A stretch of 64,000 nt of DNA from Eukaryota sp. TZLM1-RC (lineage: Eukaryota > Protista > Metamonada: BaSk clade). Shown piece after piece: positions 1 to 64,000 of the stretch. Numbering within the stretch: the first letter of the stretch is position 1; each line of letters opens with the position of its first letter. Where the stretch lies: the NCBI GenBank assembly GCA_040285825.1, contig JAUPSS010000001.1:2666001-2730000 (forward strand). Reading direction: 5' to 3'. The position numbers were made by a program, and so were the translations under genes. A model generated the notes under the pieces. That model was not told where the DNA came from. It made no database searches and saw only the letters and a list, made by a program, of their open reading frames with translations.

Positions 1-1152
1 ACTGGAGAATTCGATAACAAAACACATTTAAGTAAATTAAGTCGGAGACCAATTTTGGTAAATAATTCTTTAAAACATACAGTTGCTTTTTTCACAATAT
101 TTAAATCACCAATAAGCACAACATCATCCATATATGCAATCATTTTTAGTGAAGGAAACATCTCTTGAATTTGCAGTAGAATAGGATGAATGGCCAAACA
201 AAACAAAAGAGGTCCTAACGGATCTCCTTGCTTTACGCCACTTGATGAACTCAAAATGTTGTTACCAAAATGTAAATTAGAATATGTGCAATATGTTGAT
301 TGAAAATATGGTATTAATTCCGGCATATATTGCAATAGAGCACCATGGATACTGCGACGACTTAGTGAATTGAAAGCATTACTAAAATCCAATGACATGC
401 AAACATTGGATTCATTTTGACGAAATAAGACATCAGTATCAAAAATCGCTGAAGAGACTCCATCTGTAGTATTTATACCATATTGAAAGGGTAATAAAAT
501 CTTTTTAGCTTTTTCATTGAACCTGCTTAAGCAACACGCAGAAAAAATATTGTGTAAGCTCTCAGAGACTGCAATAGGACGAACATCCATTTTTGAATTT
601 TTGACAAGTGCAGTCAAACGAGAACTTCTTAATTCTTCTGGGTATTTGCGTTGACCAGATAATATTTGGTTGAAAAATTTGGTCAATAAACCAAGGCAAT
701 CTTCTGAAGAAATAATCGCGGCTTTAACATGATCAATAGTAATACCAGAAAGTCCGGCAGATTTACCACGAGGTCTCTTTTTGATAACCGAAAAAACTTC
801 TGATGGCATCAATGGATAATTTTCCCAGTATGTACCGTAAAAATTTTGATCCATTATAGGGTCTTCATAAGGATGAAGTATTTTCAGTTTATCTATTGTA
901 TTTTCATTGTTCGGTGCTTTAACTCCGGGACTTAAAGCTGACAAAGCCTTGGACCATTTGTTGTCAAAGCATTTGTCTTCAAAAATTTTACTTAATTTCT
1001 CGGATGACTGATTTCTCGGTGCTATATTAGTTAAATCTTCGGAAATATTAACGAAATTTTGTTCAAAAGGAGGACAAAAAGAACCAAAAAATTCCCAAAT
1101 AATATTGATAGCATACTTTCCTTTACATAATTGATCCAAAAATCTTTGAAAA
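1..1152 (-). mobile_element. 5'-truncated CRE-like non-LTR retrotransposon (family A), RT region, runs off window start
   Basis: Near-identical to the reverse complement of 26797-27950; encodes DVRPIAVSE, LDFSNAFNS, GVKQGDPLGP and YMDD RT motifs. Confidence 0.93.
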
Positions 1153-1506
1153 TCCAAGTTCTCTAAAACTTATAAGATTTTTTTGCAACTTGCAAATTTC
1201 AATGGTAAGGAGAACAAGCTTCTTGGAGAAAGTTCCACAATACCAGAGGGAAAATATTGAGACCAAATTTTTGGTGAAAGAGAATCAATTTCACGTTGTA
1301 AAGAAATCAGATAAAAGTTTGCCACAGTTATCATTGACATCAATTAAATTATATATCTGTAGTAAAGACTGCTGACTCAACTCTATCAGTAGCATTTATT
1401 CCATAATTCAAAAGGCAACAAAGTGGTTTTGCTCTTCCTTTAAATCTGTTTAAACAATTAAACAAGAGGCTGAAAAATTATTTTGTAAACTCTCAGAAAC
1501 TTGTAT
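1153..1506 (-). repeat. Composite ~350-bp tail (decayed RT relic plus family-B relic), also at 13284-13667
   Basis: Reverse complement aligns along its length with 13284-13667; translates to decayed VSE...YGINxTD and FPS..VEL.PRSL.SLPL motifs. Confidence 0.85.
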
Positions 1507-4209
1507 TTATTGAATTTGCACACTTAATTAAATTAACTCATAACTAATGGGACGACTATCATTGAACCAAAATTTCCTCTACAAAATCTTGATCTGCTTG
1601 CTGTCTAGCAAAAGCTTCTCTTATTCGATTGAAAAACCGAGGTAATCTATTAATAATGGCAAATAGAATCCGTGAACGCCTTAAAAAATATCAAATCTTT
1701 TCAAATCTTTTGTTTTTTCTTGAACCATTTTTTGGAAGTCATTCAACAAAGTTTCTGCTTCATCTGATAATCTTCCATTTATCGAAAATGGGAATGCAAT
1801 AAAAACCAACTGTGTATTTCTACCAGCATTAGCTTCTTCAATATCTTTATCATATTTTCTATGTTTCTCTTTTGCTTTAAAATCCAGAGCAGCCACAGGA
1901 TTTAGTTTTCTTCTGTGAACCAAAGTATCATTTGCAACATTACAGGAGACAAAATCAACAAAAGCTTCAGAGTTCTCAATCCAATCACAGTATACATCAC
2001 CTCTATCATCTGAACCAAAATAATTCAGAGAAAGTGTTTCCTTCAGCAGGGGCTCTTTGATACACGATATTCTTGCAGTTTGTGCCTTATTGAAAACAGT
2101 GTCTCTAACAGCACCATGTAATGAAGAACGATAAGTTATCAATTTAGAGCAATTCAGAGCATGGCGCAAAGTGTGTTGAGGTGAATTCGAACAAATACAT
2201 TTTTCTTTTGAAAATAATTGATTAATGGGGATATTCAAATATAATCTCATTTTTGTTACAAATGCTGCATTAGTGGCACACAATCCAAATCTTCGTGGTA
2301 CAATGGTTACAATAAGTGAAGAATTTGACGCCTTGTTTTCACAAACACCCTTTTCCAATAACAATGAGTGAAGATCTTGATTTAAAACAGCCGAGCTGCA
2401 AATATTATTATAAAGATCTTTTTCATACATTCCAGTCAATCTTTTCTGTAATGTTCGAAGAGTGTACTTCAAATTTAAAACATTTTTTCTGGAATATTGC
2501 CATTGAATGATTGGGGAAAACATCGACCCCATTTTTCTACATCAATTCTTGAAATTTCTTCATTTAATGCAAAAACAGTGGAACTTTGCGTTGTCATCAA
2601 TAAATCTTCCCAATCTGCAAATCTTTCGGAAAACTCAAAGATTGCATTTCTGCATCCACCAACAAAAGCACACGAGGTAAGAATAGAAGCCTTCGTCCAC
2701 CCTAAACCACCATAATGTGGACTAAGGTAAGCATGATCTGGAATTTGAAACATTTTACATCCCAGTAATTGAGACAGAACTTTTGCACGTAACTCATTAA
2801 ACTTCTGAGCCAAAGGCCTAGTGACAAGAGGATTTGTAGATCGAAATATATGATTAAAATTGGAACTAAAACACAGTCTTATAATGGTAAATTTGATGTG
2901 TTTTTTTATATCTAAATTCATCATTCGGTCAATTTTGTCAGAAATTGAGTTCAACTTTTCAAACAATTTTTTGGTAATTTCATCATTATTTCCTAAAAAC
3001 GAACCCAAATGACGAATAGCATCAATTGAATATAATTTGGCTTGAATTTCAATATCATCAATTATTGTGGAAACTGGAGAATTCGATAACAAAACACATT
3101 TAAGTAAATTAAGTCGGAGACCAATTTTGGTAAATAATTCTTTAAAACATACAGTTGCTTTTTTCACAATATTTAAATCACCAATAAGCACAACATCATC
3201 CATATATGCAATCATTTTTAGTGAAGGAAACATCTCTTGAATTTGCAGTAGAATAGGATGAATGGCCAAACAAAACAAAAAGAGGTCCTAACGGATCTCC
3301 TTGCTTTACGCCACTTGATGAACTCAAAATGTTGTTACCAAAATGTAAATTAGAATATGTGCAATATGTTGATTGAAAATATGGTATTAATTCCGGCATA
3401 TATTGCAATAGAGCACCATGGATACTGCGACGACTTAGTGAATTGAAAGCATTACTAAAATCCAATGACATGCAAACATTGGATTCATTTTGACGAAATA
3501 AGACATCAGTAGCAAAAATCGCTGAAGAGACTCCATCTGTAGTATTTATACCATATTGAAAGGGTAATAAAATCTTTTTAGCTTTTTCATTGAACCTGCT
3601 TAAGCAACACGCAGAAAAATATTGTGTAAGCTCTCAGAGACTGCAATAGGACGAACATCCATTTTTGAATTTTTGACAAGTGCAGTCTAACGAGAACTTC
3701 TTAATTCTTCTGGGTATTTGCGTTGACCAGATAATATTTGGTTGAAAAATTTAGTCAATAGACCAAGGCAATCTTCTGAAGAAATCATCGCGGCTTTTAC
3801 ATGATCAATAGTAATACCAGAAAGTCCGGCAGACTTACCACGAGGTCTCTTTTTGATAACCGAAAAAACTTCCGATGGCATCAATGGATAATTTTCCCAG
3901 TATGTGCCGTAAAAATTTTGATCCATTATAGGGTCTTCATAAGGATGAAGTATTTTCAGTTTATCTATTGTATTTTCATTGTTCGGTGCTTTAACTCCGG
4001 GACTTAAAGCTGACAAGGCCTTGGACCATTTGTTGTCAAAGCATTTGTCTTCAAAAATTTTACTTAATTTCTCGGATGACTGATTTCTCGGTGCTATATT
4101 AGTTAAATCTTCGGAAATATTAACAAAATTTTGTTCAAAAGCAGGACAAAAAGAACCAAAAAATTCCCAAATAATATTGATAGCATACTTTCCTTTACAC
4201 AATTGATAA
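1507..4209 (-). mobile_element. 5'-truncated family-A non-LTR retrotransposon (RT, CCHC, RLE, 3' UTR), frameshifted
   Basis: ORF pieces 3687-4202, 3196-3471, 2475-3278 and 1681-2532 are collinear with the 26181-29517 copy; 3' UTR ends in AATAAAT. Confidence 0.93.
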
Positions 4210-14717: not shown

Positions 14718-14870
14718 AGCATTGATGAATAAGTGGCAACACATCAGCTTACTATTTGTAAATCAGGCTGGAGATTTAGGAATAGAGATCGAAATGCTTC
14801 GCTGAATATGATGACAGTGATGGAAGCACATGTAAATGGTGAGGATAGACCAGTATAACTACAAAGAGTC
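14718..14870 (+). pseudogene. Fanzor C-terminal relic (RuvC-II/III)
   Basis: One frame reads SIDE*VATHQLTICKSGWRFRNRDRNASLNMMTVMEAHVNGEDRPV*LQR, paralleling the C-terminus of ORF 55896-56414. Confidence 0.78.
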
Positions 14871-19121: not shown

Positions 19122-19203
19122 CTTCAACCACATCCACATCCCTAAACTTAACCATCCTGAGATGATTGGCTTAGATCAAAATACGATAAAAATGGATTTG
19201 AAG
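19122..19203 (-). ncRNA. omegaRNA-like stem-loop downstream of a Fanzor pseudogene
   Basis: Minus-strand helices CUUCAA/UUGAAG, AUCCAU/GUGGAU, UCUAAGC/GUUUAGG and AAUCAUC/GAUGGUU; the G-U pairs form only on the Fanzor sense strand. Confidence 0.5.
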
Positions 19204-19207
19204 ACTC

Positions 19208-20075
19208 TTATTGAGGTCTTCTAAAAGCTAGGGGTGTAGTGTTCAAAAAGTATTCGCTTACTGCAATCTCCCACTGGTTTCTCGATGCAGAGATATCTCT
19301 TGACCAAACCATCCCACATTCTGGACATGTAAAATAGGCTTTAGACTTTTTCCTTTCTCCATTCTCTATGAAGTAAAGGTCTTCACGCAAAACTTTGCAA
19401 CAGTTCACTTTCGATGATGTTTAATCTTCATCGCCGTCCTTCACGGTTGGAAATCGAGCCTTGAGATACTTCAGAAAACGCTTTCTTGGTGTTTCACTCT
19501 TTGACGTGATGGTCCATCACCTCCTTTCCCAAACCAAATAATCACTTGACGATTTTCATCCATGTTTTTGATTTTCTGGACAAAATGGCTGAATTTCTTT
19601 TGGCGACGGACAATAAAGTTGAAGCGATTACGCCGAATTGCTTTTCTTTTTCCTTGATGTAGATGGTGGTCCAATAAACTTTGTTTTTCAGTGTTGTCTC
19701 TTTGGGGATTCACATTAAAAGTTGGAATTAAGCAATGTTTCACATAAGCAAAAAACTTCAAAGTCAACTCTGACTGGGGAAAGGGAAAAACGATGTGGTC
19801 ATTGATAGGAACTTCATCAAAGTTTCCACCGATAATGGCTTCCCTGACTTTGTTGAGTTTAGTCAATAATTCTTTCTTCAAATGATTTCCATGAATTTGT
19901 TCTAGTCTGAACTTCTTCAAGGTGACAATGTTTAACCAACGCAAAACGTATTCATGAAAGTGTTTACTGAGAGCATTTCCATAATTAATGGAAATTTGTT
20001 TGGCAGTGTACTGGAAAACTCGATTCATAGATGTAGTATCTCGAAATTGAGTCTTTCTTTGACCAAGCTCATTAG
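19208..20075 (-). pseudogene. Fanzor pseudogene (RuvC-I deleted, frameshift and premature stop)
   Basis: FQYTAKQISINYGN, VIIWFGKG, GDED*TSSKVNCC, CPECGMVWSRDISASRN. Confidence 0.85.
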
Positions 20076-20195
20076 TAAGATTTGGTAGAATTGAATAAAA
20101 GAAAATCAGGTAATTAAAACTGCCTTACTCTAATAACGCAAAACAAAACAAATACTTTTTTTGACTGGAATATCTATTGAGATAAAAAAACCCAT

Positions 20196-22192: not shown

Positions 22193-24118
22193 CTATCTTT
22201 CAGGCCACAATTCCGCTTTCTTCTTAATTTGAATATTTTTTGCAGCGGAAATATCTCTGTCATATACTATTTGACACTCAGTACAAATACGCATCTGCCA
22301 TGAGCCTGCTTGAATATTCTCGGCCATGCAACAACTTGACATTTTGCTTGTATTAAATTCACTGGTTGACAAGTGCTTCACGTCCTTTTGATAACACAAC
22401 CATTTTCTGAAAGCCCTTGCTGATCCATATCGATTGACTTTTCGGCAATGAGAAGGGAAATTAGCAGAACCCACAGCAAGATAGAGTTTTTCAGGATGTC
22501 CAGCCAGCCTTTGAAATTTGTTGAGACTCTCTCTGAACCGTCTCTCTTTTCGTCTGCGGTTATCAAATTTAATTATTTTCCATTTCTGGCGATTACTTTC
22601 CAAATACACTTTCCTCCTGACCAAATTCCAATGGTTCAAATATTGGTTGAAATTTTGAACGGAATATTGGTTGGGAGAGTGTTTACTGGCTGAAGGTTTT
22701 GTCATGTATCTTCTGCCAGTTGGACAAGGGATAACTCCACATTGATTGTCATTTAAGAAGTAACCACATAATCTTGATTGGCCAAGATCAACGCCGATAA
22801 GGGGCCTTTCAGGTAAAATTTCGACTGGATGTCTACGTCTTCGACGGGGCATTTTTTTAGTACCCTTCAACTGTGTTTCTCTGGTTTTGTTGGCATTAGG
22901 GTCACTTTTCATTTCATTTTTTGATCTTCTTTTCTTTTTCGGTGGTTCATCCAGCTCATCTGTGTTTTCTGAGTCATTATTTTTACCTTCAAAGGTCAAA
23001 AGCAGTTCATTACCATTAGTTTTCAATAAAATTTTGTTAAATCTATTTTTCAAACTTTTTCTGTTGATATTGAATTTTTGGTAAGGACATTGTTTGATTA
23101 TTCGTTTCAGACATGTATTTTTGATAAACTTTGTTTTGGAAGATGATCCTTCAATAATTGGAAATTTTTTCACAGAGTGGAAAATTTGTGAAGGTACCTC
23201 AATAAATTTAGAACCTTTATGAGAAGCTAAAGGTATTATTCTAAATTTCTTCCAGCAATGCATATGAGAAAAGAAAGTGAGTAAGTATTGTGAAATTTTA
23301 AGATTGAAGAGAAAAAGCTCACTAATTTCCTTTGATGAAATGGTGATTTTATCGTGTGAGGACAGTAGGGAGGCAGTGGTAGGAAATCTTTGAAGGAGAT
23401 TCAAGATAAACTTACATGCATTAAATAAAAAGAATCTTTCTCTTGAATTATTCAAATTGAAATTGATGAGGTATTCAAGAACAGAATCAACTACTACTTC
23501 CTCGGGTTGGGCTAGTGGTTCATCTGGCAAAAGTGAAAGAATATTATTTGCAAAGACATTTGTTTTATCCAGGGCTCTACAATGAGCACGAAGAAAGTTT
23601 TTTGTCCAGGATTGACAAATTTTAGGTAAACTTGTCTTCACGTTAGACGCCAATTGACGAGCCCGACAAGCAAGGTAAGGAGAAAGCCCTTTTCTATTGA
23701 TAAAATTACAATTCTGAGATTGCAGCCAAGCATTGAGAAAAAGATTTAATGAATTTCTGTAAGGCACTAAAGAATTTTCCCACACAGAAACAAGAGACCT
23801 GTCTTGTGGGCATTCAGGAAGAAATCCATTGTAAAAGATATGGAGTAATTGGCGTTGGCCTTTAGATGTGGAAGGCTTAGGAAAAGAACCAGTGGTGGTG
23901 ACGGTCATAAACAGATACCATACATCCTGTTCCACTAAAGCTCTAGATGCCAACGGAAAATTTAGAAGAAAAGATTGAAGTAATAAAGAAGCTTCATGAC
24001 AAATCTCGGTGACAACAGGAAGGTCAGTCCGAATTTGTTGCACCGCTGCAGGGGTCAGCAGCGAGTTAAGTGCACAAAACCGAGTGAATACACGTGACAC
24101 AGAGTGGGTGTCTGTCAT
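22193..24118 (-). CDS. Fanzor (Fanzor1-like, TnpB-derived RNA-guided endonuclease), 641 aa, intact
   Basis: RuvC-I LIGVDLGQ, RuvC-II TSEFNTSK, zinc ligands CC...CTEC, RuvC-III YDRDISAAKNI; basic NLS-like tracts. Confidence 0.92.
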   Translation of the reverse strand: MTDTHSVSRVFTRFCALNSLLTPAAVQQIRTDLPVVTEICHEASLLLQSFLLNFPLASRALVEQDVWYLFMTVTTTGSFPKPSTSKGQRQLLHIFYNGFLPECPQDRSLVSVWENSLVPYRNSLNLFLNAWLQSQNCNFINRKGLSPYLACRARQLASNVKTSLPKICQSWTKNFLRAHCRALDKTNVFANNILSLLPDEPLAQPEEVVVDSVLEYLINFNLNNSRERFFLFNACKFILNLLQRFPTTASLLSSHDKITISSKEISELFLFNLKISQYLLTFFSHMHCWKKFRIIPLASHKGSKFIEVPSQIFHSVKKFPIIEGSSSKTKFIKNTCLKRIIKQCPYQKFNINRKSLKNRFNKILLKTNGNELLLTFEGKNNDSENTDELDEPPKKKRRSKNEMKSDPNANKTRETQLKGTKKMPRRRRRHPVEILPERPLIGVDLGQSRLCGYFLNDNQCGVIPCPTGRRYMTKPSASKHSPNQYSVQNFNQYLNHWNLVRRKVYLESNRQKWKIIKFDNRRRKERRFRESLNKFQRLAGHPEKLYLAVGSANFPSHCRKVNRYGSARAFRKWLCYQKDVKHLSTSEFNTSKMSSCCMAENIQAGSWQMRICTECQIVYDRDISAAKNIQIKKKAELWPER

Positions 24119-24257
24119 GTAGTGAGAATAAAGAGCTCATCTATCAAATTTTACACTTGTCACCCAATTTTCGACTTCTGGTTGCCTGTTCTGGGAGGTT
24201 TTTAACCCTCAACTTGGTTTTGGGAGGTTTTCACTATTCCCACACTTTCCCCTCACT

Positions 24258-25894: not shown

Positions 25895-26020
25895 TAAAAT
25901 TCAACCACAGTAATATAGTTCATTTATCTGTTCAGACCCTTGATTTCTACAGTCCTGACTTGTGGAGTATTTTTGAAATCCATACAAGACCTCACAACAA
26001 AAGACTGAGAGTTTGTTAAT
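25895..26020 (+). pseudogene. Short Fanzor relic (same subfamily as the 55896 locus)
   Basis: TTGATTTCTACAGTCCTGACTTGTGGAGTATT matches the reverse complement of about 56376-56407 at 28 of 32 nt (LDFYSPDLWSI vs IDFYSLDLWSI), followed by CAAAAGACTGAGAGT (QKTES). Confidence 0.75.
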
Positions 26021-26180
26021 GTATGGTTCTGTAAAACTATGCGCGATTTGAAATTTTGAACTCATCACCGAGCCACTCGAGGACTGGAATGGATTGAAGT
26101 TCAGAAGTCAAATACATTTGAAGTATCGATGAGCAACAAAAAATAAGAAAATACAAAATTGATTACTTCCAAGTTATGCT

Positions 26181-29100
26181 TTTTTTTTCTTCCTCTACAT
26201 ATAACCGTTTAACTTAAAACCTGGCTGAACCGAGATCATTGCTTCTATTCTTTCTTGTTGATGTCTGAATCAGTTTCTGATTCTAATGGAGTCAAAAGAA
26301 AGAACGATAGTCAACAAGATGCTCAAGACGTCCTTTCCACCTCTCCTCCTCAACCTCTTCTCTCTTCATTTTTGGACAAAAAAAATTCTGATCAAGAATT
26401 TTTAGACAATCACGATGAAAAAAAAGTTTGTTCAAAAACAAAGCCACGCTCCTACAGATGCTCAAAGTGTCGACAACAGGGACATAATGCTCGAACATGC
26501 CCCAATGTTGGAAAAAATGATGCGGCAAATTCTGAAACACAATGTAAAAGAAAATTTATTAGAAGGAAAGAGTCTAAGGTAGAACCCATAAATAATGCTC
26601 CACAAGTTGTTGCAAAACCAGTTAGCAATCGATTGAAGCACAAAACTTGCAACACTTGTGGTATTTCTTTTAGAAAAAATGCAAAAGGAAAAACTTCTGA
26701 TCGCTGCTTGAAATGCCGCATGGTTGATAACTACCATCCTCCTATAAGAATACCTCAAGAAATTCATCCGACCAAATGCAATGAATTTGCTTTCGTTTTT
26801 CAAAGGTTTTTGGATCAATTATGTAAAGGAAAGTATGCTATCAATATTATTTGGGAATTTTTTGGTTCTTTTTGTCCTCCTTTTGAACAAAATTTCGTTA
26901 ATATTTCCGAAGATTTAACCAATATAGCACCGAGAAATCAGTCATCCGAGAAATTAAGTAAAATTTTTGAAGACAAATGCTTTGACAACAAATGGTCCAA
27001 GGCTTTGTCAGCTTTAAGTCCCGGAGTCAAAGCACCGAACAATGAAGATACAGTAGATAAACTGAAAATACTTCATCCTTATGAAGACCCTGTTATGGAT
27101 CAAAATTTTTACGGCACATACTGGGAAAATTATCCATTGATGCCATCAGAAGTTTTTCGGTTATCAAAAAGAGACCTCGTGGTAAGTCTGCCGGACTTTC
27201 TGGTATTACTATTGATCATGTAAAAGCCGCGATTATTTCTTCAGAAGATTGCCTTGGTTTATTGACCAAATTTTTCAACCAAATATTATCTGGTCAACGC
27301 AAGTACCCAGAAGAATTAAGAAGTTCTCGTTTGACTGCACTTGTCAAAAATTCAAAAATGGATGTTCGTCCTATTGCAGTCTCTGAGAGCTTACATAATA
27401 TTTTTTCTGCGTGTTGCTTAAGCAGGTTCAATGAAAAAGCTAAAAAGATTTTATTACCCTTTCAATATGGTATAAATACGACAGATGGAGTCTCTTCAGC
27501 GATTTTTGCTACTGATGTCTTATTTCGTCAAAATGAATCCAATGTTTGCATGTCATTGGATTTTAGTAATGCTTTCAATTCGCTAAGTCGTCGCAGTATC
27601 CATGGTGCTCTATTGCAATATATGCCAGAATTAATACCATATTTTCAATCAACATATTGCACATATTCTAATTTACATTTTGGTAACAACATTTTGATTT
27701 CATCAAGTGGCGTAAAGCAAGGAGATCCGTTAGGACCTCTTTTGTTTTGTTTGGCCATTCATCCTATTCTACTGCAAATTCAAGAGATGTTTCCTTCACT
27801 AAAAATGATTGCATATATGGATGATGTTGTGCTTATTGGTGAATTAAATATTGTGAAAAAAGCAACTGTATGTTTTAAAGAATTATTTACCAAAATTGGT
27901 CTCCGACTTAATTTACTTAAATGTGTTTTGTTATCGAATTCTCCAGTTTCCACAATAATTGATGATATTGAAATTCAAGCCAAATTATATTCAATTGATG
28001 CTATTCGTCATTTGGGTTCGTTTTTAGGAAATAATGATGAAATTACCAAAAATTGTTTGAAAAGTTGAACTCAATTTCTGACAAAATTGACCGAATGATG
28101 AATTTAGATATAAAAAAACACATCAAATTTACCATTATAAGACTGTGTTTTAGTTCCAATTTTAATCATATATTTCGATCTACAAATCCTCTCGTCACTA
28201 GACCTTTGGCTCAAAAGTTTAATGAGTTACGTGCAAAAGTTCTGTCTCAATTACTGGGATGTAAAATGTTTCAAATTCTAGATCATGCTTACCTTAGTCC
28301 ACAATATGGTGGTTTAGGGTGGACGAAGGCTTCTATTCTTACCTCGTGTGCTTTTTGTTGGTGGATGCAGAAATGCAATCTTTGAGTTCTCCGAAAGATT
28401 TGCAGATTGGGAAGATTTATTGATGACAACGCAAAGTTCCACTGTTTTTGCATTAAATGAAGAAATTTCAAGAATTGATGTAGAAAAATGGGGTCGATGT
28501 TTTCCCCAATCATTCAATGGCAATATTCCAGAAAAAAATGTTTTAAATTTGAAGTACACTCTTCGAACATTACAGAAAAGATTGACTGGAATGTATGAAA
28601 AGATCTTTATAATAATATTTGCAGCTCGGCTGTTTTAAATCAAGATCTTCACTCATTGTTATTGGAAAAGGGTGTTTGTGAAAACAAGGTGTCAGATTCT
28701 TCACTTTTTGTAACCATTGTACCACGAAGATTTGGATTGTGTGCTACTAATGAAGCATTTGTAACAAAAATGAGATTATATTTGAACATCCCCATTAACC
28801 AATTATTATCAAAAGAAAAATGTATTTGTTCGAATTCACCTCAACTCACTTTGCGCCATGCTCTAAATTGCTCTAAATTGATAACTTATCGTTCTTCATT
28901 ACATGATGCTGTTAGAGACACTGTTTTCAATATGGCACAAACTGCAAGGATATCGTGTATCAAAGAGCCCCTGCTGAAAGAAACACTTTCTCTGAATAAT
29001 TTTGGTTCTGATGATAGAGGTGATGTATACTGTGATTGGATTGATAATTCTGAAGCTATTGTTGACTTTGTCTCATGTAATGTTGCAAATGATACTTTGG

Positions 29101-29517
29101 TTCACAGAAGAAAACTTAATCCTGTGGCTGCTCTGGATTTTAAAGCAAAAGAAAAACATAGAAAATATGATAAAGAAATTGAAGATGCAAATATCGATAG
29201 AAATACACAGCTGGTTTTTATTGCTTTTCCATTTTCGATAAATGGAAGATTATCAGTTGAAGCAGAAACTTTTTTGGATGACTTCCAAAAAATGGTGAAA
29301 GAAAAAACAATGAAAAGATTTGATATTTTTTTATGGCGTTCACGGATTCAATTTGCCATTGTTAATAGATTACCGCGGTTTTTCAATCGAATTAGAGAAG
29401 CTTTAGCTAGACAGCAAGCAAATCAAGATTTTGTAGAGGAAATCTTGGTTTAATGATAGTCGTCCCATTAGTTATGATTTAATTTAATCAAGTGTGCAAA
29501 TTCAATAAATTATATTT
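26181..29517 (+). mobile_element. Full-length CRE-like RLE non-LTR retrotransposon (family A), single ORF 26261-29453 broken by four homopolymer indels
   Basis: CSKCRQQGHNARTC zinc knuckle, C4 finger, RT (QGDPLG, YMDD), CICS..HALNC, RGD..D..K RLE; flanked by AAGTTATGCT at 26171-26180 and 29518-29527. Confidence 0.93.
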
Positions 29518-54675: not shown

Positions 54676-55830
54676 TTAGTCTAAATCAATAATCTCCATG
54701 TCATCCACTCTAGCAACCTTAATAGAAGGATTTAAATCACAACCAACTGGAAGAGGTTCATTAGACACTTCTAACAAAATCTGCTCGACCGTATCAGGAC
54801 ATTCATTGGTATGAGGAAGCTTTGGTACTAATAACTTTATTGCTGCATCCACTTCCCTTGCAATGTCCAACTTACGAATCTTTCTGATAATTCGTACTTG
54901 GTTTAGTACTTCAATTTTAGATTCATAATCCTCAACATACTTTATAAATAATCGTTTGAACTCCGTGTTGTAGAGGTATCTCAACTTATTGGGTTCAGAC
55001 GCCAGAGAAGAAGCCAACCTTGCCATTTCATTTTCTAATTTAATTAAATCTGTGTTGAATTCATCATCAATGTGGTCTTGAATTTTGTGAATAATTTGAG
55101 CTTTTAAAAGTTTTTCTGAGAGGTGAATACATCTAGCACAGGTTCTAATGATCGACAGAACAACAGAAGAAGGCTCTAGAAAGAAATTATCGAAATAAAA
55201 AATGTACAATAACCGGAATTGATTCGAATCAAATAAAATAGTTCTGGTAGCCAGCCTGGAAGATGATGGAAAGCCTTCAGCAAAAAGACAGAAATCTCTA
55301 CAATAATTAGCAAATTTTTGTTCTAATTTGGAGAGAGAATATTTCTGTCCAAGTTTTTCAAAACTTGATTGAATTGATGGCCGCTCAATTGCATCTTTTA
55401 ACGAGCTTGACTCTGTAATACTCACCATACTAGTTCTATCTGGAGATTTTGGAGTTGGTTGGACAGATGATCGTGAAGGTTTCGGTTGGGAGGATTGTGG
55501 TGTCATTTTGGTGGGAATTTCTCCATCAAACTCATCTTCTGAAGAATCAGTATCAACCAAGACTTCTCCAAGTGGAGGTGGGTCAGAAAGGTTACCAAAA
55601 CTCCATGGAGCGTATTCTTTAGAGACGAACAGTAGCTGGGAGTCATCTATAAAATCATCCTCGTATTCATGACGAGAGAGGTGAGCACGTTTCTCAAGAC
55701 GACGAAGAAACCTGGAAGATTTAAGGTCTGTCTGAACTGATGAAGAAGATAAATCATTATCAACTTCTGTTCGGAAAACGTTGTTACAGTCTATGGATTT
55801 TGAAGAAGAGGTGGAGAACTGAAAGAGCAT
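54676..55830 (-). CDS. HPC2/ubinuclein-like protein (HIRA complex), tentative
   Basis: YEDDFIDDSQL resembles the Hpc2-related domain. Confidence 0.55.
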   Translation of the reverse strand: MLFQFSTSSSKSIDCNNVFRTEVDNDLSSSSVQTDLKSSRFLRRLEKRAHLSRHEYEDDFIDDSQLLFVSKEYAPWSFGNLSDPPPLGEVLVDTDSSEDEFDGEIPTKMTPQSSQPKPSRSSVQPTPKSPDRTSMVSITESSSLKDAIERPSIQSSFEKLGQKYSLSKLEQKFANYCRDFCLFAEGFPSSSRLATRTILFDSNQFRLLYIFYFDNFFLEPSSVVLSIIRTCARCIHLSEKLLKAQIIHKIQDHIDDEFNTDLIKLENEMARLASSLASEPNKLRYLYNTEFKRLFIKYVEDYESKIEVLNQVRIIRKIRKLDIAREVDAAIKLLVPKLPHTNECPDTVEQILLEVSNEPLPVGCDLNPSIKVARVDDMEIIDLD

Positions 55831-55895
55831 TTGTATGGGGAAATTCCCATAAATACACCATGACAATCAATTTTCGTGTGGAATAATTACAAAAA

Positions 55896-56960
55896 CTATC
55901 TGCACAGATACTGAGGCCTTTCATTACCACTCATTCTGGCTTCAGCAATTGCAAACATATTCAGACAAGCCAGCTTATTTCTATTGAAAAGCTTTGTTGA
56001 GCCTTTGTTACTGAGTTTGCAACTCTCACTATTACAAGCTAATAAACCATGACACATAGTAACAGGCGTGTTTTTTCTTCTATAGCATCTGGGATTTGTT
56101 ACTCTCAAAAACGTAGCAACCTTTTCAAAACAAACAGGACATTTTGCTGAAGTGAAAGCTTCATTAATCATCAATACTTCAAATCCATTTCTTTTCAGAA
56201 ATTGAGTCCATCCAATTCCTCTAGTAGGTCTCTGATGTTTCAAATTCTTGGAACCTTTTTTACCATAATCACCCATTAGAATTAAAGTGTCTTTTGGATT
56301 GCATAACTGCTGGACAAGGTTTTTTAACAACCAACTTTCAGTCTTTTGCTTGTGAATAAAAGCTTGCATTTTGTGAATGCTCCACAAGTCAAGACTGTAA
56401 AAGTCAATTGTCAAAAAACTTGCCGAAGTTTGGCAACCACAAAGTTGGAAAAATCTATAAAAGTTGCTGAATTGGCAGCAAACGTGAATAATTCGGTGTT
56501 GGCATCTTCAATTGTCATTTCGTTAGACTCTATCATTTGGTTCCTGTCGGAACCTACCTCAGTATACTTTGTCGCCCATCGTTTCTGTTTTTCATTCATC
56601 CTACTTTTCAAAGACCAGGACATCTGAGTCATTCTCAACCATTTGTACTTCTTGTCTTGATTCATCACCCGACTATTTCTTTGCTGTTCAGTTTCATGTT
56701 CAGGCACCATGGCTAGTTCTTCATCAGTCTTTTTGCTGCCAAAATACAATAAATCACGTTTTCCAGGATCACAAACAACAATTCGTTTGTCTTGAAAAGC
56801 ATCAACATCAACATCATGAATATATAAATCAGAAATACTAGCCTTGTTGTCTGGCTTACATTTCTGACCTTGTAAATCCCGACGAACAAATTCTACTGCA
56901 ATATTAAATCCATCTGTGTGTATAATGTTGTTGAATTTATAGTTGAATTTATTGAATTTA
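55896..56960 (-). pseudogene. Fanzor C-terminal half (frameshift at 56411-56418; RuvC-III Asp to Asn)
   Basis: IHTDGFNIAV, RIVVCDPGKRDLLY, LMGDYG, INEAFTSAKCPVC, CHGLLAC, FNRNKLACLN, ERPQYLCR. Confidence 0.88.
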
Positions 56961-58213
56961 TATTTACTCTCCAAAAAGAAATTATGGCGATCAAACTTAC
57001 CAATAACAATCGAAATTAAAAACACTTTTTGATCTGAATTCCACTCACCCATTTGCTCATCAGTTTTCTTTTTCAAAACAGTTGCACCCTCTTTTCTCTT
57101 TTTGTTGATAATCTTATCAGGAGGGAGAAATTGGCCATCATGATCTTGGTAAAGATAACCATCCTGATAGGTTTCAAAATCAAAGCACATAACAGTGGGA
57201 AGATTTTGATTTGTGGTCATTGATTTGAATTGAATTAAAGGATCAGGCTTGAAGCCACTAAGACTTGGCTCAATTTTTTTGACCATACTCGGTTTCAATG
57301 GTTGTTTTGTCAAAATCTTCCTGTTCTCGATATTCAACATTGTATTCTCAATACAAATTTCTCGGTTCAGTGCTTTTTGTTGTTTTTTTAGCTTACGCTT
57401 TGATGTTTGTTGGTCAAAAATCGCATTTCTAATAATTTTTGATGGAGGAGTTGATTCAAAATTAGATCTTCTCTTTCTGGGACCAGGATTTGCTTCAACA
57501 TCTCCATCAATTGTTAAATCAACAGTAAATGGGTTTGTTGATAGAAGATGTTGGCAGCTTCTGGATTGAAAAGATAAATTATAAACATTATAATCAAACT
57601 CAACATTATCAAAATAACAATTTAAGACACAACATCCCATATCTAAAGTGCAAGAATCTAAACCACAAAAATGAACAAACTCATAAACATCAAAACAACT
57701 ATGTAAAACAAAACATATACAAAAGAAACATCCCACATCTACAGTACAAGTACCTAAACCAAAAACATCAACAAAATCAACAACATCAAAGTAACAACAA
57801 TGTACAACAAAACACAAACAAGAACAACATCCCATATCTACAGTACAAGTACCTAAACCAAAAACATCAACAAAATCAACAACATCAAAGTAACAATGTA
57901 AAACAAAACACAAACAAGAACATCTCATATGCAAGGTGATTACCACCATGGCCGACTCAACAGGATCCATATCATGACTCACATGATGACGGAAAAAAAT
58001 ACAATACTCTACCCCCACGGAAGGATCAGAACGACGATGCCGATAGGAAATCGAGGCTCTGACCTTCCGTTTATTCCTGTAAAGCAGGATTACTCTTCCC
58101 GACTGAGGAGTTCGGGAGGAAGTACTCTGCTGTTCTGTGAAGAACAGGTTGAAGGAGGAGGTGGGAACTGAGTCCGTAACCTCGTTATCCTTGTTCTCCT
58201 TTTGTGGATGCAT
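56411..58213 (-). CDS. Chimeric ORF: Cys-rich repeats, 2A peptide, PolB-type exonuclease fragment, Fanzor RuvC-I region
   Basis: One open frame containing GDVEANPGP, VMCFDFETYQ...DQKVFLISIVIG and VCDPGKRD. Confidence 0.6.
   Translation of the reverse strand: MHPQKENKDNEVTDSVPTSSFNLFFTEQQSTSSRTPQSGRVILLYRNKRKVRASISYRHRRSDPSVGVEYCIFFRHHVSHDMDPVESAMVVITLHMRCSCLCFVLHCYFDVVDFVDVFGLGTCTVDMGCCSCLCFVVHCCYFDVVDFVDVFGLGTCTVDVGCFFCICFVLHSCFDVYEFVHFCGLDSCTLDMGCCVLNCYFDNVEFDYNVYNLSFQSRSCQHLLSTNPFTVDLTIDGDVEANPGPRKRRSNFESTPPSKIIRNAIFDQQTSKRKLKKQQKALNREICIENTMLNIENRKILTKQPLKPSMVKKIEPSLSGFKPDPLIQFKSMTTNQNLPTVMCFDFETYQDGYLYQDHDGQFLPPDKIINKKRKEGATVLKKKTDEQMGEWNSDQKVFLISIVIGKFDRHNFFLESKYKFNKFNYKFNNIIHTDGFNIAVEFVRRDLQGQKCKPDNKASISDLYIHDVDVDAFQDKRIVVCDPGKRDLLYFGSKKTDEELAMVPEHETEQQRNSRVMNQDKKYKWLRMTQMSWSLKSRMNEKQKRWATKYTEVGSDRNQMIESNEMTIEDANTELFTFAANSATFIDFSNFVVAKLRQVF
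57479..57550 (-). other. 2A (StopGo) ribosome-skipping peptide
   Basis: LLSTNPFTVDLTIDGDVEANPGP matches the D(V/I)ExNPGP consensus, including the usual preceding Gly. Confidence 0.85.
57590..57935. repeat. About 3.5 tandem copies of a 93-99-bp A/C-rich unit
   Basis: AACATCCCATATCTA-like anchors at 57631, 57727, 57826 and 57919. Confidence 0.9.
58017..58205. other. GC-rich cluster of five consecutive stem-loops
   Basis: ACGGAAGG-TCAGA/TCTGA-CCTTCCGT, TCCTG/CAGGA, CTTCCCGA/TCGGGAGG, CTGTTCT-GTGA-AGAACAG, GAGGT/ACCTC. Confidence 0.6.
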
Positions 58214-58291
58214 ATTTTGACCAACGAAATTATTTATGGAGTTTTTCAAGACGTATTTGTGGAGTTGTAAAAAAATTGAACATCCTCAATA

Positions 58292-58510
58292 GTGGTTGCT
58301 TCATCAGCTTTATATGCACCTTTACGAACACATGGGGCTGTTGCCACTGGTCCACTGGCACTTCATACCCAAGGCAACTCATCTATGATTGCTGCGGCAG
58401 TTGAACATTCCTTCATTGTTTACTCCACAGATCGATTACACATACTCTACACTGGTCCTCCTCTTCCTGGACCTATCAGTCACATGATATGGGTGAAGCG
58501 AGTTTTAGTC
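58292..58510 (+). pseudogene. WDR36/Utp21 N-terminal fragment
   Basis: SALYAPLRTHGAVA...AVEHSFIVYSTDRLHILYTGPPLPGPISHM resembles the Utp21 N-terminus; no ATG; ends in AT-rich low complexity. Confidence 0.6.
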
Positions 58511-58899
58511 TTCTCTATATCCAATTCTATCACAATATTTATAAATATACTATATATGATTAGTATATTAGTATATTATAATTATAATGATTATAATAAT
58601 AATATTAGGTAAATTATATAGTATAATTTATAATAATATAATAATACCTATTATTTATATAAATTTATATTATATTATATTAAAAATTCTATATCCAATT
58701 CTATATCCAATTCTGTCTACTCGTGGACACCTGGATCTCAAACAACTTCTGTCGTCCTCTCTTCCCATGCCCACATAGCCTCTCTACTCTCCCTTTTGTA
58801 TGGTTGTGTTTGATGAATCATTTTGGATTTGTTGAAACTTCATTGGTAAAAGCTTTACCTATACTAAACTTGCTCTGTTTACGTCGTTGCTGTAGTTTA

Positions 58900-61000
58900 A
58901 CTTCTATGGTTGAAAAACAATGGCGTTCTTATAAATGGCTAATTTTCTGATAAAGTCATGGCATCATATCATAATTCTTCATTGTATTTTTCCTAAACCT
59001 CTTTCTTGGAAGTCATCCTGAAAATTTCCTGCTCCTTCAGTTAGCCTTCCATCTATGAAAATTGAAAACCAAACAAGACAAGTTGTCTATTTCTTCAGAA
59101 CTACCTTCTTCGATATCATAATCTTACGGTTTATTTTGCTTGGATTGCCAGTGCAACTTCGGGATTTTAATTTTTCTCTGCACTAGTTTGCCATTTGCAA
59201 CAATACATAAAACAGATTCAATGAAATTGTTTCTTTTACCAAATGAGATTCCTGCATTTCTTGCAGCATTCAAAACTGTGTTTCTAGCAGCAGCTTGTAA
59301 GGAATAACAATCTTTTATCCACTCAAAAATTATGTACTCTGAGATGATGTGAGTTGTGGATTATAAATATACAATGAGTAATTTTAATAATTACAAAACC
59401 AATTTTTTACAATGTATATCGATGATTTTAACTTATCATTATCACTTTATATGCCGTTCAGTGATTAAGGTCATTTTGATTCCATTTTTGTATTTTAATT
59501 TTGGTATTTCCTCCTTTTTGTGAAAAAAATCGTTGGGTAGTCATTTTCTACTTTGTCCAACCTACAAATCTTTCAGAAAACTGAAGACAGGTTTTTTTGC
59601 ATTCACTGATGAAAGTACAGGAAGTAAGAATTGAATCCTTATTACATCCTAAACAACAGTATGTGGGCTATGGAATGTGTGACTAACAATTTTGAACACA
59701 TTGTATCCCATTCATTTGAACAACGCCTCTGCTCTGAATAAATTGAACATATGGGCTCAGGGATAATGACATTAATAGATCAAAATCGGAATTCAAAAAT
59801 GGTCTAAGAGTTGTAAATTTTTGGTGTTTTCGGACATTGTATATCATCATTTTGATTCATTCAATATTCAAACAACTGATCAGTAAATTGTTCATAATTT
59901 CCTCGAAAAGACCGTACAGTGGCGATCTGTAGGCAGAAAATATTGTTTGTGAAAACAATTCGTGTGAGCTTCAACATAGTGAAGAGTCAAAAAAACAAAA
60001 TCAAAACTTGGAAAATTTGATTGTTAAGTCAAGGCCCAATACTGTTAAAATTTGGTCGCAACAATACAGTTGTTTTTTTGATAATCAGAAATTCCCTGTT
60101 TAAAACAAAAACAACCATTCGAGCAATCATGTTCAGCAAAAGGAACATTTTTTGCTTTGGAAGTAACATTGAAAATACTGTCAAGCCCGAAAAAATCACC
60201 GTGTTTAACAGCAGTGGATTGTTTATAAATAGAATGTACATAATAAGTTTTTTGAAAAAAGCAAAATTTTGGTCAATAGTTCAACAAACAAAGAGAAATA
60301 CTTATTAAACTTAATAAAACCATTGAATTAAATGAATTACTCACATCCAAGAACAAACAAAATTTCAACTCATATACTGTGGTAAATACTGCAGCAAAAG
60401 TGGAACACAACGGGTCAACTGATCACAATTCACAATTACAAACAAATGGGATCAGAACAAATGAAGCACAGTTTCAGACTGTCACAACACATGGTGGTTT
60501 GTTTTCAGAATACTCCATCTTCTGTTAGGGAACTTCTTTTAGAGGGGAACTTTAAGTTCATAACGAAACATTACTTGTCTTTTCCGAATTACTGGAATAC
60601 ACTCATCACCCAAACACCAAGCGTTATGTCTTTATTATAATCCTTATGGAATCATAGATATTGTTATTGGGCAAAAATTGTTTAAGCCCACTTCACAATC
60701 TTAAAACCAATTGTTGTTCCTTACCTTTTAGATTTATGTATTTCTCAACAAGTTTGCCCAAGTTTTCCAGGAAATCCAAATTCCCAAAACCATCTGTGTT
60801 ACAGTAAAAAAACCAAATGATTTTTGAATTGAACATTCTATTACTCCATAATTGATAAATATAAAGCACAGTTACTTTCCTTAAATGGCGATTCGGATAA
60901 TCATTTGTTATTTGTCCATTGACTGTCTCCTTACATGCCTCTTTTGGACATACTACTTCGTCATTCTTAGATGAATCTGTTGAAATTGTGAAACAGTGTA
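58900..61000 (-). mobile_element. Old, heavily decayed family-A-related retrotransposon
   Basis: Collinear remnants: FLDVSNSFNS, KKTTVL..FNSIG, SILTSCTF, ARNTVLNAARNAGIS, FSIDGRLTE..DDFQ. Confidence 0.7.
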
Positions 61001-61087: not shown

Positions 61088-62520
61088 TTATTTTCTCTTG
61101 GTCGGTTTTATGAGAGAGAACATCTCATCAATACTTTCTGGTTGATTTGGGATATGAAGACATAGAGTGTTAGGTTTTTTTTGAATAAATTTAACCGAAG
61201 AACCGATCATGGAAGAAACAAAGGGACATACATTATATTGGGCATGAGAATTTTGATTAATCGAGGAAATGGGTTTCGCATATTTAGCAATTTTATATTT
61301 TTCGCCTGCAAGAAGAGGATTATTTACATCCGAGTTAATGAGATGTTCGTTAGAGGAATTACAAGGGTCAATAGACATGGCGTCCAAAATAGTAAAACTA
61401 CCATTTAAACCAGGAACAACTAGATCACCTCTAGATCGAGGCAACCGATGCACCTTCAATAGTTTTAATGCCAAATTGAAAATCAGAGAAGAAAGCATCC
61501 TGGTTAAAGACTCTCTAATAGCAATTGGTCTAACTCCATCGGGTTTGTTACTTTTTCCTGGTTTAACTAAAGCAACTAACCGGGCAGCAGTCAATTCAGG
61601 CGGAGGAACATAATTCAAACACATTAAACTTTGAAAATAAATGGCAAGATCCTCAGAAATTTCTGGAGTATTTTTACAAGCAGTTTTTAACAAATCAAAA
61701 GAAATGCCTGAGGGACCAGCAGCTTTTCCTTTTGGCAATTTAACAATAGCATTGAATACTTCTTGAGCCTGAAAAGGATTTTCGAGCCAATATTCACAAA
61801 TTGGCGGCTTAAGTGGGCAAATATTTTCAGTTGGATGAAGCACTTTCAGTTTTTCAACAGTTTCATAATTATTATCAGCCAACTTACCTGAAAAAATATT
61901 TTTTAAACCGCTTCCATATCTACCTCTCAAGAACAATTTTCTTGCTTGAAACCATGAACTGGCTTTACTTTTCTTCGGTTTGTAATTAATTGATTTTTTA
62001 TTCTTTTTGGCAAAGAATTTCCAAAATCTTGTTAAAAATAATAAAAAAAAATGTTGTTATGTTCCATTTGTTTGATTTCAATTGGGAGGAAAAAGAACGC
62101 ATTTCCATTGACACAGGAACAGAACTGACAGGACTCACCTCTACAGGAATTTTAACAGGTGCACGAAGAGAATCACTTGTTTGACAGTCAAAACAAAACA
62201 AGAGAGGGCGACAATTGGAAGAATTAGAGAGGAACTTTTTGCAAAAAGGACAATTATGTTTCAAGACATTATCCGTAGGATCAGGAGCAACAGTTTTTGG
62301 TAAATGAGTTTGATCAATATTTAAATCATAATTAACATCATCAGCAGAAACATTGGGAACAGGAGGAAGATTCAGTGCGGATGGCGTTTGCAAACTATTA
62401 ACAATAGAAATATTTGTTTTCAGTCTCATTGTTTCGGTAATAATATCAGGACATTTTCTAATGTTATTTGAAGTTGATTCAAATAAAAATTAGATTCACC
62501 ATGGATCAGATGAACATCAT
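61088..62520 (-). mobile_element. Internally deleted family-C RLE retrotransposon
   Basis: CPFC..CFDC finger, GKAAGPSGISFD, DGVRPIAI fused directly to the RGDLVVPG RLE region; RT core is missing. Confidence 0.8.
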
Positions 62521-62629
62521 AAGGAAACCTTTGAAAAAATTCAAAAACAAAATTTTTTCCACCTCCTAAAAAAGCTGCTTTACATAAAATTTTTTTTTGA
62601 AAAATTTTAATTTATTATTAAACTACAGT

Positions 62630-64000
62630 CTAAAAGTCAATATCTTCAAAACAAGCTTCCACACCATCAAACCTCACAACAGCAATTTCTTCGTAATGTG
62701 CACTGACAGACATCAAAGCTTTCGAAATCATTTTAGGAATTGATTTGAAAATAGTAAAAACAATACGATTTAGCCACAAGCGACGATCAAAACGCTTATT
62801 CATTCTTCTTTTCACAAGATTTTCAAAATCATCAATAAAATTTGTTTCATTTCATTTACTTTTATTCAACAACAAATACGAAATACACAATTAAAACTCC
62901 ACATCCTCAAAACCTGCCTCCCCTACATCAAAACAATTAATTGCTAAAGATTCAGAAAATTTCCCAAAAGAAGATAGTGAATCAGAAATTAGTTTTACCA
63001 TTCCCTTAAAAATAGAAAATACAATCCTGTTTTGCCAGTAAACACGATTGAAAATTCTTCCAGTTCTTTCCTTTACAACAACAACATAATCCTCAAGGAA
63101 AGCCATAGCAGCCTTACCTAGAGATCCAAGCAGAGAAAAAACAAATGGACATAAATTATATTGGGCATGAGAATTTTCATTAACCGAAGAAATGGGATTC
63201 GCATATTTAGCAATTTTATATTTTTCGCCTGCAAGAAGAGGATTATTTACATACGAGTTAATGAAAGAATGAAGAGGTAATGAAATGTTTACAGTTCAAA
63301 AGATGAGTAAACAAAAGAGGTTTACCACATTTACAAGTTAAATGATTGGGCAAATTGTTTGGCCACAGAAAACAACGAAAACGCATGTTTAGAAGCCATT
63401 CATTGTTTTTTAACAAAAGTCCATAAACAGAGGGAACTTGAGTTACTAAAGCAGCAGCTGAACTATCACGAATATCCTTTAAAAAATTACCGAAAGTGGG
63501 ATTTTTAGTTTTGGCCAAGCCAAGTCTTACTTCATAATCCAAGCCTTCATATAATTTAACCAGATGGTGCTGAAGCTTTTTCAAGCAAAAACGTAAATAT
63601 GGAAGTGATCGGGTGGGAATTTCTTGAACATTTTGAGGAAAACACTGAATCCAGATATTTTTTTATTTAAATTTAATTTTATGCAAAACCTATAAATCAA
63701 CATCTAAAAAAATCCATCTCTCCCAGAACAAAAACACTAGATGCAACTCTCTCATAGTGAGATTCAAGAGAAAGCAAAGCATCAGAAACCATCTTCAACA
63801 TCCCCTTAAAAATAGAAAACACAATTCTATTTTGCCAAAACAATCTGTTGAAATTTCTGCCAGTTCTTCTCTTTACAATCATTTCAAAATCATCCAAAAA
63901 ACGTAAAGCAGTTGGTGCAAGTGAACCAAAAAGGGAAAATACAAATGGATACAAATTGTATTTTGCATGCTGTAGACTGGCCAATTTGGACAAAGGTTCA
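62630..64000 (-). mobile_element. Stack of co-oriented RLE retrotransposon 3' fragments
   Basis: Three separate W(L/Q)NRIVF tails (62630, 62891, 63697) and a CKC..HLLNC segment (63258-63600). Confidence 0.82.

Follow-up and report, generated by a model that had tools for sequence, protein, structure and literature searches.

The closest described relatives of the element reported here are the RNA-guided Fanzor1 nucleases SpuFz1, PpFz1 and GtFz1 (PDB 8gkh, 9cf0 and 9cer), whose role in their hosts is still open (PMC10432273). OMEGA systems act through restorative homing (PMC13565253), and the MCi-2 Fanzor1 family of Mucor circinelloides, left unclassified by Bao and Jurka in 2013 (PMC3627910), combines a conserved Fanzor 3' part and a variable 5' part with 11–12 bp target-site duplications and no recognisable terminal inverted repeats. 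Among other mobile elements, the non-long-terminal-repeat (non-LTR) retrotransposons L1Tc, Ingi and CR1/L2 carry a 2A peptide with a GDVExNPGP core near an open reading frame (ORF) N-terminus (PMC3708506), and 3'-5' exonucleases occur in P and piggyBac (DEDDh) and in LTR retrotransposons (DnaQ-like). Here we examine a 64,000-nucleotide stretch of Eukaryota sp. TZLM1-RC (contig JAUPSS010000001.1, positions 2,666,001 to 2,730,000; the window), where a 2A-like motif, part of a Pol delta-like exonuclease and part of a Fanzor1 nuclease share one frame. As far as the searched literature reaches, a Fanzor1 element with an exonuclease and a 2A is new, and the window locus is a derivative of it that is predicted to be dead.

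It is highly probable, on comparison with its relatives, that the exonuclease-Fanzor fusion is real and conserved. Searching with the segment following the 2A motif gave 44 proteins out of 661 candidates, 42 of them from Eukaryota sp. TZLM1-RC and two from TZLM3-RCL, and each protein of the same family matches either residues 1–420 or residues 420–600 of the window protein, with exceptions, P0011 and P0012 for example, among models that carry deletions or are spliced. In P0031, P0033, P0040, P0042 and P0025 the exonuclease motifs ExoII (HNLMQFD) and/or ExoIII (YGLxD) lead directly into the Fanzor N-terminus, and PF03104 is above its cut-off in P0031, P0033 and P0040. The possibility of a genuine fusion raised in the preliminary description is thus supported by undeleted paralogues running from ExoI through ExoII and ExoIII straight into Fanzor. 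The undeleted parent sought there was also found, as a single chain of the window's own family (P0127) with leader, 2A, all three Exo motifs and REC, extending up to the TDG motif, but it carries no full family-B DNA polymerase (PolB).

A phmmer search with P0033 against 1.84 billion representative sequences yielded 34 hits, seven of which (P0031, P0051, P0053, P0055, P0057, P0058 and P0067) span the exonuclease-Fanzor border. All seven come from three named genomes; ten of the 34, chosen outside the weak hits to the Fanzor start alone, were traced to TZLM3-RCL (seven), GEM-RC1 (two) and TZLM1-RC (one). Full-length chains were added by a region search with P0081 and by cluster look-ups. At least eight families, 23–53% identical, can be distinguished (P0127, P0089, P0081, P0092, P0082, P0086, P0058 and P0057/P0091), and in the undeleted members a single frame encodes, in order, a variable leader, a 2A-like motif, in some cases an Ulp1 protease, then the whole of a Pol delta-like DEDDy exonuclease and a Fanzor1 of full length. 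Of the 137 proteins compared, 41 pass from ExoIII into Fanzor over a nearly constant distance, and eight chains each contain all of 2A, ExoI, ExoII, DPG and NRN, although in one the 2A is a degenerate NAGP. The element is multicopy, and its copies resemble dispersed transposons with a fixed 3' end; the 1,194-residue P0092 and the 940-residue P0089 represent clusters of 14 and 10 members, respectively, at ≥90% identity. In a midpoint-rooted tree with only four outgroups, Fanzors that bear the exonuclease are set apart from plain ones (99/100). When metagenome and viral contigs were scanned with the family alignment, by a word-based method that misses distant kin, 237 and 203 patterns matched but none was confirmed. 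The only longer protein matching P0033, a reverse transcriptase-exonuclease model (P0048), was set aside as a probable nested-element artefact.

Since the window protein alone matched no family in a Pfam scan, with its RuvC half reaching PF07282 only below the cut-off, its exonuclease was identified through the paralogues. They bear out the PolB-like ExoI motif proposed earlier: besides the PF03104 matches, a sequence profile of the exonuclease has Pol delta as its best match (E 6.6e-13), followed by a herpesvirus polymerase (8e-11), and not protein-primed PolBs, and in an atlas search the exonuclease part scored 0.94 to PF03104 clusters. With the proofreading domain of Pol delta (PDB 3iay, 6s1m; PF03104) it shares ExoI DxE, ExoII NxxxFD and ExoIII (Y)xxxD. 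The Asp and Glu of ExoI and the Asp of ExoII are invariant in an 11-row alignment and the ExoIII Asp is also kept across families; ExoII NxxxFD and ExoIII YxxxD are present in the intact relatives and both are deleted from the window copy. The domain differs from Pol delta in having a charged helical insertion after ExoI, in its fusion to Fanzor and in the absence of a polymerase domain, the palm motifs DxxSLYPS and YxDTDS being found after the exonuclease in none of the 137 proteins and in none of the six frames of the window. Unlike the element described here, the accessory DEDD exonucleases of P, piggyBac and LTR elements are, in the sources available, not fused to an RNA-guided nuclease.

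The predicted structure of the post-2A product, proposed earlier as a check and run on the relative P0089, shows a PolB exonuclease joined to a SpuFz1-like Fanzor. The AlphaFold2 model, built from a 37-row alignment (predicted local distance difference test score, pLDDT, 82; predicted template modelling score, pTM, 0.60), passes from an exonuclease ending at residue 246 to a Fanzor beginning at residue 248. In VIA-align, residues 1–246 match PolB exonucleases (Z ~19, root-mean-square deviation 2.5–2.8, ~186 residues aligned) and residues 248–940 match SpuFz1 (Z 26.4, deviation 3.4, 563 aligned). SpuFz1, PpFz1 and GtFz1 are the first fold matches of the model, the closest viral ones being giant-virus Fanzors; an atlas search with the whole of P0089 gave only giant-virus Fanzor clusters, at 0.76, which we take as a lead only. 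The Fanzor1 fold with a large REC lobe is present in the model, and REC is deleted from the window copy.

The likeness to Fanzor1 comprises the arrangement WED-REC-WED-RuvC-TNB over 563–580 residues (Z 21–26), the DPG motif, a Glu before the zinc finger, multicopy occurrence and a short 3' tail after the stop. The window sequence itself has the DPG Asp and a RuvC-II Glu six residues before the zinc finger, which serve as a criterion for Fanzor1 (PMC13565253). Its NRN aligns to the NRD of SpuFz1, and the RuvC-III Asn occurs in 33 of 33 family sequences, with Asp in all three unfused Fanzors. A reading of this Asn as the mark of a dead nuclease was dropped because the same D-E-N triad is active in GtFz1, and the substitution D606N raises the activity of SpuFz1 (PMC11423790). 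The element clade resembles GtFz1 in its triad, and Spu-1 in that no transposase was found in the element. It departs from known Fanzor1 proteins in the N-terminal PolB-type exonuclease of 245 residues with its join of 8–12 residues, the 2A-like motif, the variable leader, the optional Ulp1 domains, the fixation of the RuvC-III Asn across the clade and the absence of any terminal inverted repeat found; neither an exonuclease nor a 2A is described for MCi-2 in the available part of PMC3627910.

The 2A core is the sole NPGP in the six frames of the window, and D[VI]ExNPGP would be expected there 4e-5 times by chance. Six of the eight families have a motif of the NPGP type ahead of the enzyme; for the remaining two, the available sequences are partial or begin further downstream. 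The same core is present in RNA-virus StopGo catalogues, and the upstream W/F-x-x-D/N-L lies in the same register as in catalogue entry B670, as in hybrid class A/B viral 2As (10.64898/2026.09.24.754024). We infer that ribosomes skip at NPG|P. The position near the N-terminus of a mobile-element ORF recalls L1Tc, Ingi and CR1/L2; unlike these, the present element is without reverse transcriptase, and its leader, of 75–355 residues, is exchangeable. Leaders are unrelated between families. P0092 and P0095 are near-identical enzymes that follow distinct 2A peptides, and a 2A of the P0092 type recurs at the head of the distant P0088 family; because one enzyme thus bears different 2As and one 2A heads a distant family, swapping of 2A cassettes between families is suggested. 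The basic, NLS-like (nuclear localisation signal) tract that had been pointed out at the new N-terminus is present in the window and P0092 families and absent from four others, so that it is no general feature. A metal-binding role for the Cys repeats was considered and found unsupported: they are the reading of a T/G-rich minisatellite, whose repeat number varies among paralogues of the window family, and the unrelated leaders of the other families contain 0–5% Cys.

In three families (P0088, P0118, P0111, P0120 and P0058) one or two protease domains of the Ulp1/SENP type, with visible His and Cys motifs, stand between the 2A and the exonuclease. P0088/P0118 have two such domains (PF02902, 64 bits) and P0111/P0120 have one, recognised by motif or below the cut-off; the nucleases bearing them possibly carry a de-SUMOylase. 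In one gene model, P0080, a DEAH-type helicase precedes the exonuclease-Fanzor, either as a captured gene or through fusion of models.

In the window copy (Table 1) the Cys-rich repeats, 2A, RKRR, CFDFET, DQKVFLISIV, TDG and DPG that had been reported in one frame are all present, on the minus strand, between the ATG at 58213 and the stop at 56411. Mapping on P0127 shows that this copy lost residues 452–1029, about 578 codons or ~1.73 kb, and with them ExoII, ExoIII and all of REC. Contigs from two runs of one sample (X1/X2), read by eye, leave the window at 56960 into SLILRMSPQI, the paralogues' continuation of the exonuclease, and at 56942 into NQPMFKQKS, which is upstream Fanzor sequence; runs X3 and X4 gave low-complexity matches only. 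The junction is exclusive to the window (one of 137 proteins): ten relatives continue from ESKY into more exonuclease and 22 enter YKFN from an intact Fanzor WED. The triple ATAAATTCAA microrepeat in which the junction had been placed does have three copies, but it did not pre-exist: only one copy is in the parent, and the other two are the 17-nt insert between the breakpoints, copying the sequence just right of the break and adjoining a TAT microhomology. The microrepeat is therefore a product of the deletion and not its cause, and, because the 17 inserted bases copy sequence beside the break, it can be read as the scar of templated end-joining.

None of the contigs listed spans the junction, and the flanking ones, at a depth of 2–4, are uninformative on mis-assembly; since the insert is templated and the frame is kept, a real repair event is more likely than an assembly artefact. 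The missing T previously held to split RuvC was also recovered. The remainder of the domain (INE to CPVC, and NRN) lies in another frame behind a homopolymer of six bases at 56413–56418, which has seven bases in the X1/X2 contigs. Among 20 proteins of the same family this site is open in 11, stopped in four and shifted the other way in five; a programmed -1 frameshift, which was considered, was rejected on account of these open and oppositely shifted copies, and the shift represents either decay or an assembly error. Lacking ExoII, ExoIII and REC, the window copy is predicted to be dead as an enzyme.

Table 1. Features of the exonuclease-Fanzor locus and its margins, in window positions
Feature	Position	Strand	Basis or remark
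Element locus		-	Flanked by host-type ORF starting 55830 and WDR36/Utp21 fragment at 58283
5' fragment of WDR36/Utp21 gene	58283..58528	+	Head to head with element; PF25171 E 4.5e-4, below cut-off
Leader upstream of 2A, residues 1-231	57521..58213	-	T 55%, G 24%
99-nt T/G-rich minisatellite, 3.1 copies	57624-57922	-	Repeat search; reads as Cys/Phe/Val-rich repeats
2A/StopGo-like motif DLTIDGDVEANPG|P	57479..57520	-	Predicted skip before Pro codon 57479-57481
Basic linker after skip site (RKRR, KRKLKK)	57188..57478	-	Sequence; putative NLS
N-terminal third of Pol delta-like DEDDy 3'-5' exonuclease	56960..57187	-	69-90% identity to paralogues matching PF03104 above cut-off
ExoI CFDFET	57170-57187	-	Within exonuclease piece
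DQKVFLISIV	57005-57034	-	Within exonuclease piece
17-nt insertion, probably templated, at internal deletion	56943..56959	-	Frame kept
Fanzor1 WED-II, RuvC-I and bridge region	56411..56942	-	85-96% identity to paralogues; alignment with full-length relatives
TDG	56909-56917	-	Fanzor part, main frame
RuvC-I DPG	56762-56770	-	Fanzor part, main frame
T6 homopolymer frameshift	56413..56418	-	Decay or assembly error
Fanzor1 RuvC-II, TNB zinc finger, RuvC-III with Asn	55896..56420	-	Other frame; PF07282 E 0.005, below cut-off
RuvC-II INE	56160-56168	-	Before zinc finger CPVC
RuvC-II Glu to zinc finger INEAFTSAKCPVC	56130-56168	-	Glu six residues before zinc finger
RuvC-III NRN	55977-55985	-	Asn as third RuvC residue
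3' tail ending GGAATTTCCC: right end of element, candidate omegaRNA scaffold	55838..55895	-	Contig loose ends, P0035 C-terminus
Flank that would serve as guide of window copy	55818..55837	-	From Fanzor rule; overlaps host-type ORF start (ATG 55830)

The right end of the element was placed 58 nt after the stop on the evidence of three other copies. A contig of X1 departs from the window sequence at 55838, while a loose contig end of X2 and the C-terminal end of P0035 have the terminal GGAATTTCCC in common with the window and diverge beyond it. Beyond this end, at 55635–55785, an X2 contig of depth 2.2 covers the window without differences. The sequence preceding the ATG varies among copies: the window's antisense WDR36 fragment is found in P0046 and P0125 as well, at 76–92%, and P0011 and P0012 have other sequence, so that the WDR36/Utp21 fragment is probably carried along by a subfamily. 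In combining a fixed 3' end with variable 5' parts, the element is reminiscent of MCi-2 (PMC3627910).

The explanation that we consider best, and hold with moderate confidence, is that the fusion cuts the empty site under RNA guidance and then shortens the 3' end released by the cut, allowing host repair to copy in the element. Ribosome skipping at NPG|P would free the enzyme from its leader or from captured host sequence upstream, and an RNA composed of the 3' end of the element plus its flank would direct the D-E-N RuvC to the site that lacks the element. In SpuFz1 the non-target strand is cleaved after base 16–17 (PMC10432273), and such a Fanzor1 cut, 16–17 nt beyond the target-adjacent motif (TAM), would leave a displaced 3' tail unmatched to the element's left end. 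The tethered exonuclease might then chew this tail back to the TAM, that is, to the insertion point, giving an end that could prime copying and could not simply religate; these two steps are the least certain. Copying that was aborted would produce internal deletions with templated inserts like that of the window, and variable 5' ends. End trimming for homing is favoured because the 3' tail, on the SpuFz1 pattern, would be non-homologous to the left end and because, in yeast, the proofreading activity of Pol delta is able to remove as many as 40 nt from an invading 3' end (PMC10868807). The activity of the fusion, its RNA and its expression are predictions from sequence. More tentatively, and with considerable doubt, the relatives may represent selfish elements of a transposase-free class, whose single RNA-guided protein would cut the target and also trim the end to the exact insertion point, with spread by repair synthesis from a fixed 3' end, capture of host DNA upstream and an exchangeable 2A that frees the enzyme.

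Several observations weigh against this explanation. The 2A of the window family has Phe where its relatives have Trp, a change that lowered the activity of a class B 2A ~2.3-fold but kept it (PMC12338488), and His replaces Glu in the 2A of P0055, P0058 and P0086; hybrid peptides of the form W-x-x-D-L...GDVExNPGP are active and E-to-H is tolerated in P2A (10.64898/2026.09.24.754024). The ExoIII Tyr is replaced by Met in the 14-member P0092 family and by Phe in P0127. In a yeast single-strand annealing assay pol3-01 left correction patterns unchanged (PMC10868807), and, at a pTM of 0.60, the P0089 model does not establish where the exonuclease lies with respect to the R-loop. No left terminal inverted repeat was found: an inverted match to the right terminus was absent at up to one mismatch in 10 nt and up to three in 14 nt, and the best local alignment equalled the shuffle mean (263 of 500 shuffles being as good), although the window copy may have lost its left end, or retain it only in decayed form. 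No target-site duplication or TAM could be fixed. The predicted fold of the candidate omegaRNA tail does not surpass those of shuffled sequences (z -0.2 to -1.65), and the tail matches no Rfam family. As no transposase was matched by Pfam among the ORFs scanned from the relatives, homing by itself leaves the element's arrival at new loci unexplained. Finally, the relatives are AUGUSTUS gene models (10.1101/2023.05.03.539051; the species names of that paper were matched by inference to the record labels) and are known as such alone, so that hidden introns could stitch frames together; the constant join across families argues against an artefact of this kind.

The same fusion could act destructively, the exonuclease eroding ends so that rival elements, viruses or empty alleles are deleted instead of converted, much as in an engineered TREX2-Cas9. 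Trimming in the 3'-5' direction lengthens 5' overhangs, the opposite of the resection needed by homologous recombination, and many copies carry deletions; moreover, a TREX2-SpCas9 fusion has been used to raise editing efficiency (PMC13370227). We regard this as unlikely, if a serious contender: target destruction would bring a selfish element no gain in copies, and the copies, with their fixed 3' end, have the appearance of dispersed transposons. Still less likely is a role for the exonuclease in which its substrate is not the cut DNA but the omegaRNA, or some other element-derived nucleic acid, trimmed at the 3' end. The DEDD superfamily does include RNases, and guides that reach a fixed 14–15 nt into the flank need 3' maturation (PMC10432273), but unfused Fanzors obtain mature guides without an exonuclease and the domain is closest to the DNA-specific proofreading domains of Pol delta and other PolBs.

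Slightly less likely again is the idea of the exonuclease as a captured passenger, or as a structural or DNA-binding module whose catalysis is irrelevant. The elements do pick up other domains (Ulp1, and a helicase in P0080 that is possibly a gene-model fusion) and host fragments, and the ExoIII Tyr varies; against this, four acidic residues are kept across families 23–53% identical, and the exonuclease stays fused at fixed spacing while leaders and Ulp1 domains come and go. The alternative offered in the preliminary description, a deletion that brought together a 2A-PolB and a separate Fanzor in an endogenous virus or Polinton, is very improbable and, for the window locus, is refuted. It had in its favour a real deletion junction and the occurrence of both Fanzor1 and PolB in large DNA viruses, with giant-virus Fanzors as the closest viral fold matches. 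The deletion was rightly recognised, but comparison with P0127 and with the loose contig ends of X1/X2 places it within a gene that was fused beforehand and has no polymerase domain, the exonuclease is not that of a protein-primed PolB, and no relatives were found in the viral contigs scanned, within the reach of that scan. An ancient viral origin of the exonuclease may nevertheless be envisaged.

If cut-and-trim homing holds, the element would provide a natural homing enzyme of this kind and, as far as searches reach, the first 2A-dependent DNA element. The intact-looking conservation of the exonuclease over such diverse families points to end processing after the cut as a step under selection, and the fusion may be viewed as a natural counterpart of engineered nuclease-exonuclease editors. 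It offers an example of 2A recoding outside elements with reverse transcriptase and a whole clade with the D-E-N triad, for which full-length natural ORFs exist (P0092, P0089 and P0081). No natural Fanzor-exonuclease or Fanzor-2A fusion appeared in the literature searched, which comprised listings and the beginnings of abstracts, with supplements of Fanzor papers, Repbase and subscription papers outside its scope. The word 'exonuclease' is absent from the main texts of PMC10530073, 10.1101/2023.08.09.552727, PMC10432273, PMC3627910 and PMC13565253, and the word 'Fanzor' from the 2A surveys searched, including the supplements of some.

The window is AT-rich eukaryotic DNA with a dynein heavy chain frame of 4,500 uninterrupted codons (labelled from its translation), and the neighbours of the element, only some of which were scanned, are host-type genes and retroelement remnants. 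The host-type ORF at 54676–55830 (-), of 384 codons and with no confident Pfam match, has its ATG 7 nt beyond the right end, so that the element would sit in its promoter region. On the other side the WDR36 fragment is interrupted at 58514–58699 by an AT-rich insert of 186 nt that is palindromic in part and bounded by direct repeats of 17 nt; one X1 contig is without this insert, and the frame resumes at 58700 in a second piece with no Pfam match. Fragments of non-LTR retroelements, recognised by reverse transcriptase-like frames in the translations, lie at 1–3300, 26213–29450, 58966–59222 and 61088–64000, none with NPGP. An unbroken 647-codon frame at 22196–24136 (-) encodes an unrelated plain Fanzor-type protein with PF07282 above the cut-off and a RuvC-III Asp, highly divergent on the tree. 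Further Fanzor remnants occur at 19200–20124 (-) and 14760–14867 (+), both with a RuvC-III Asp, and at 25927–26137 (+), the last being a decayed piece of the exonuclease-Fanzor family with 74% DNA identity.

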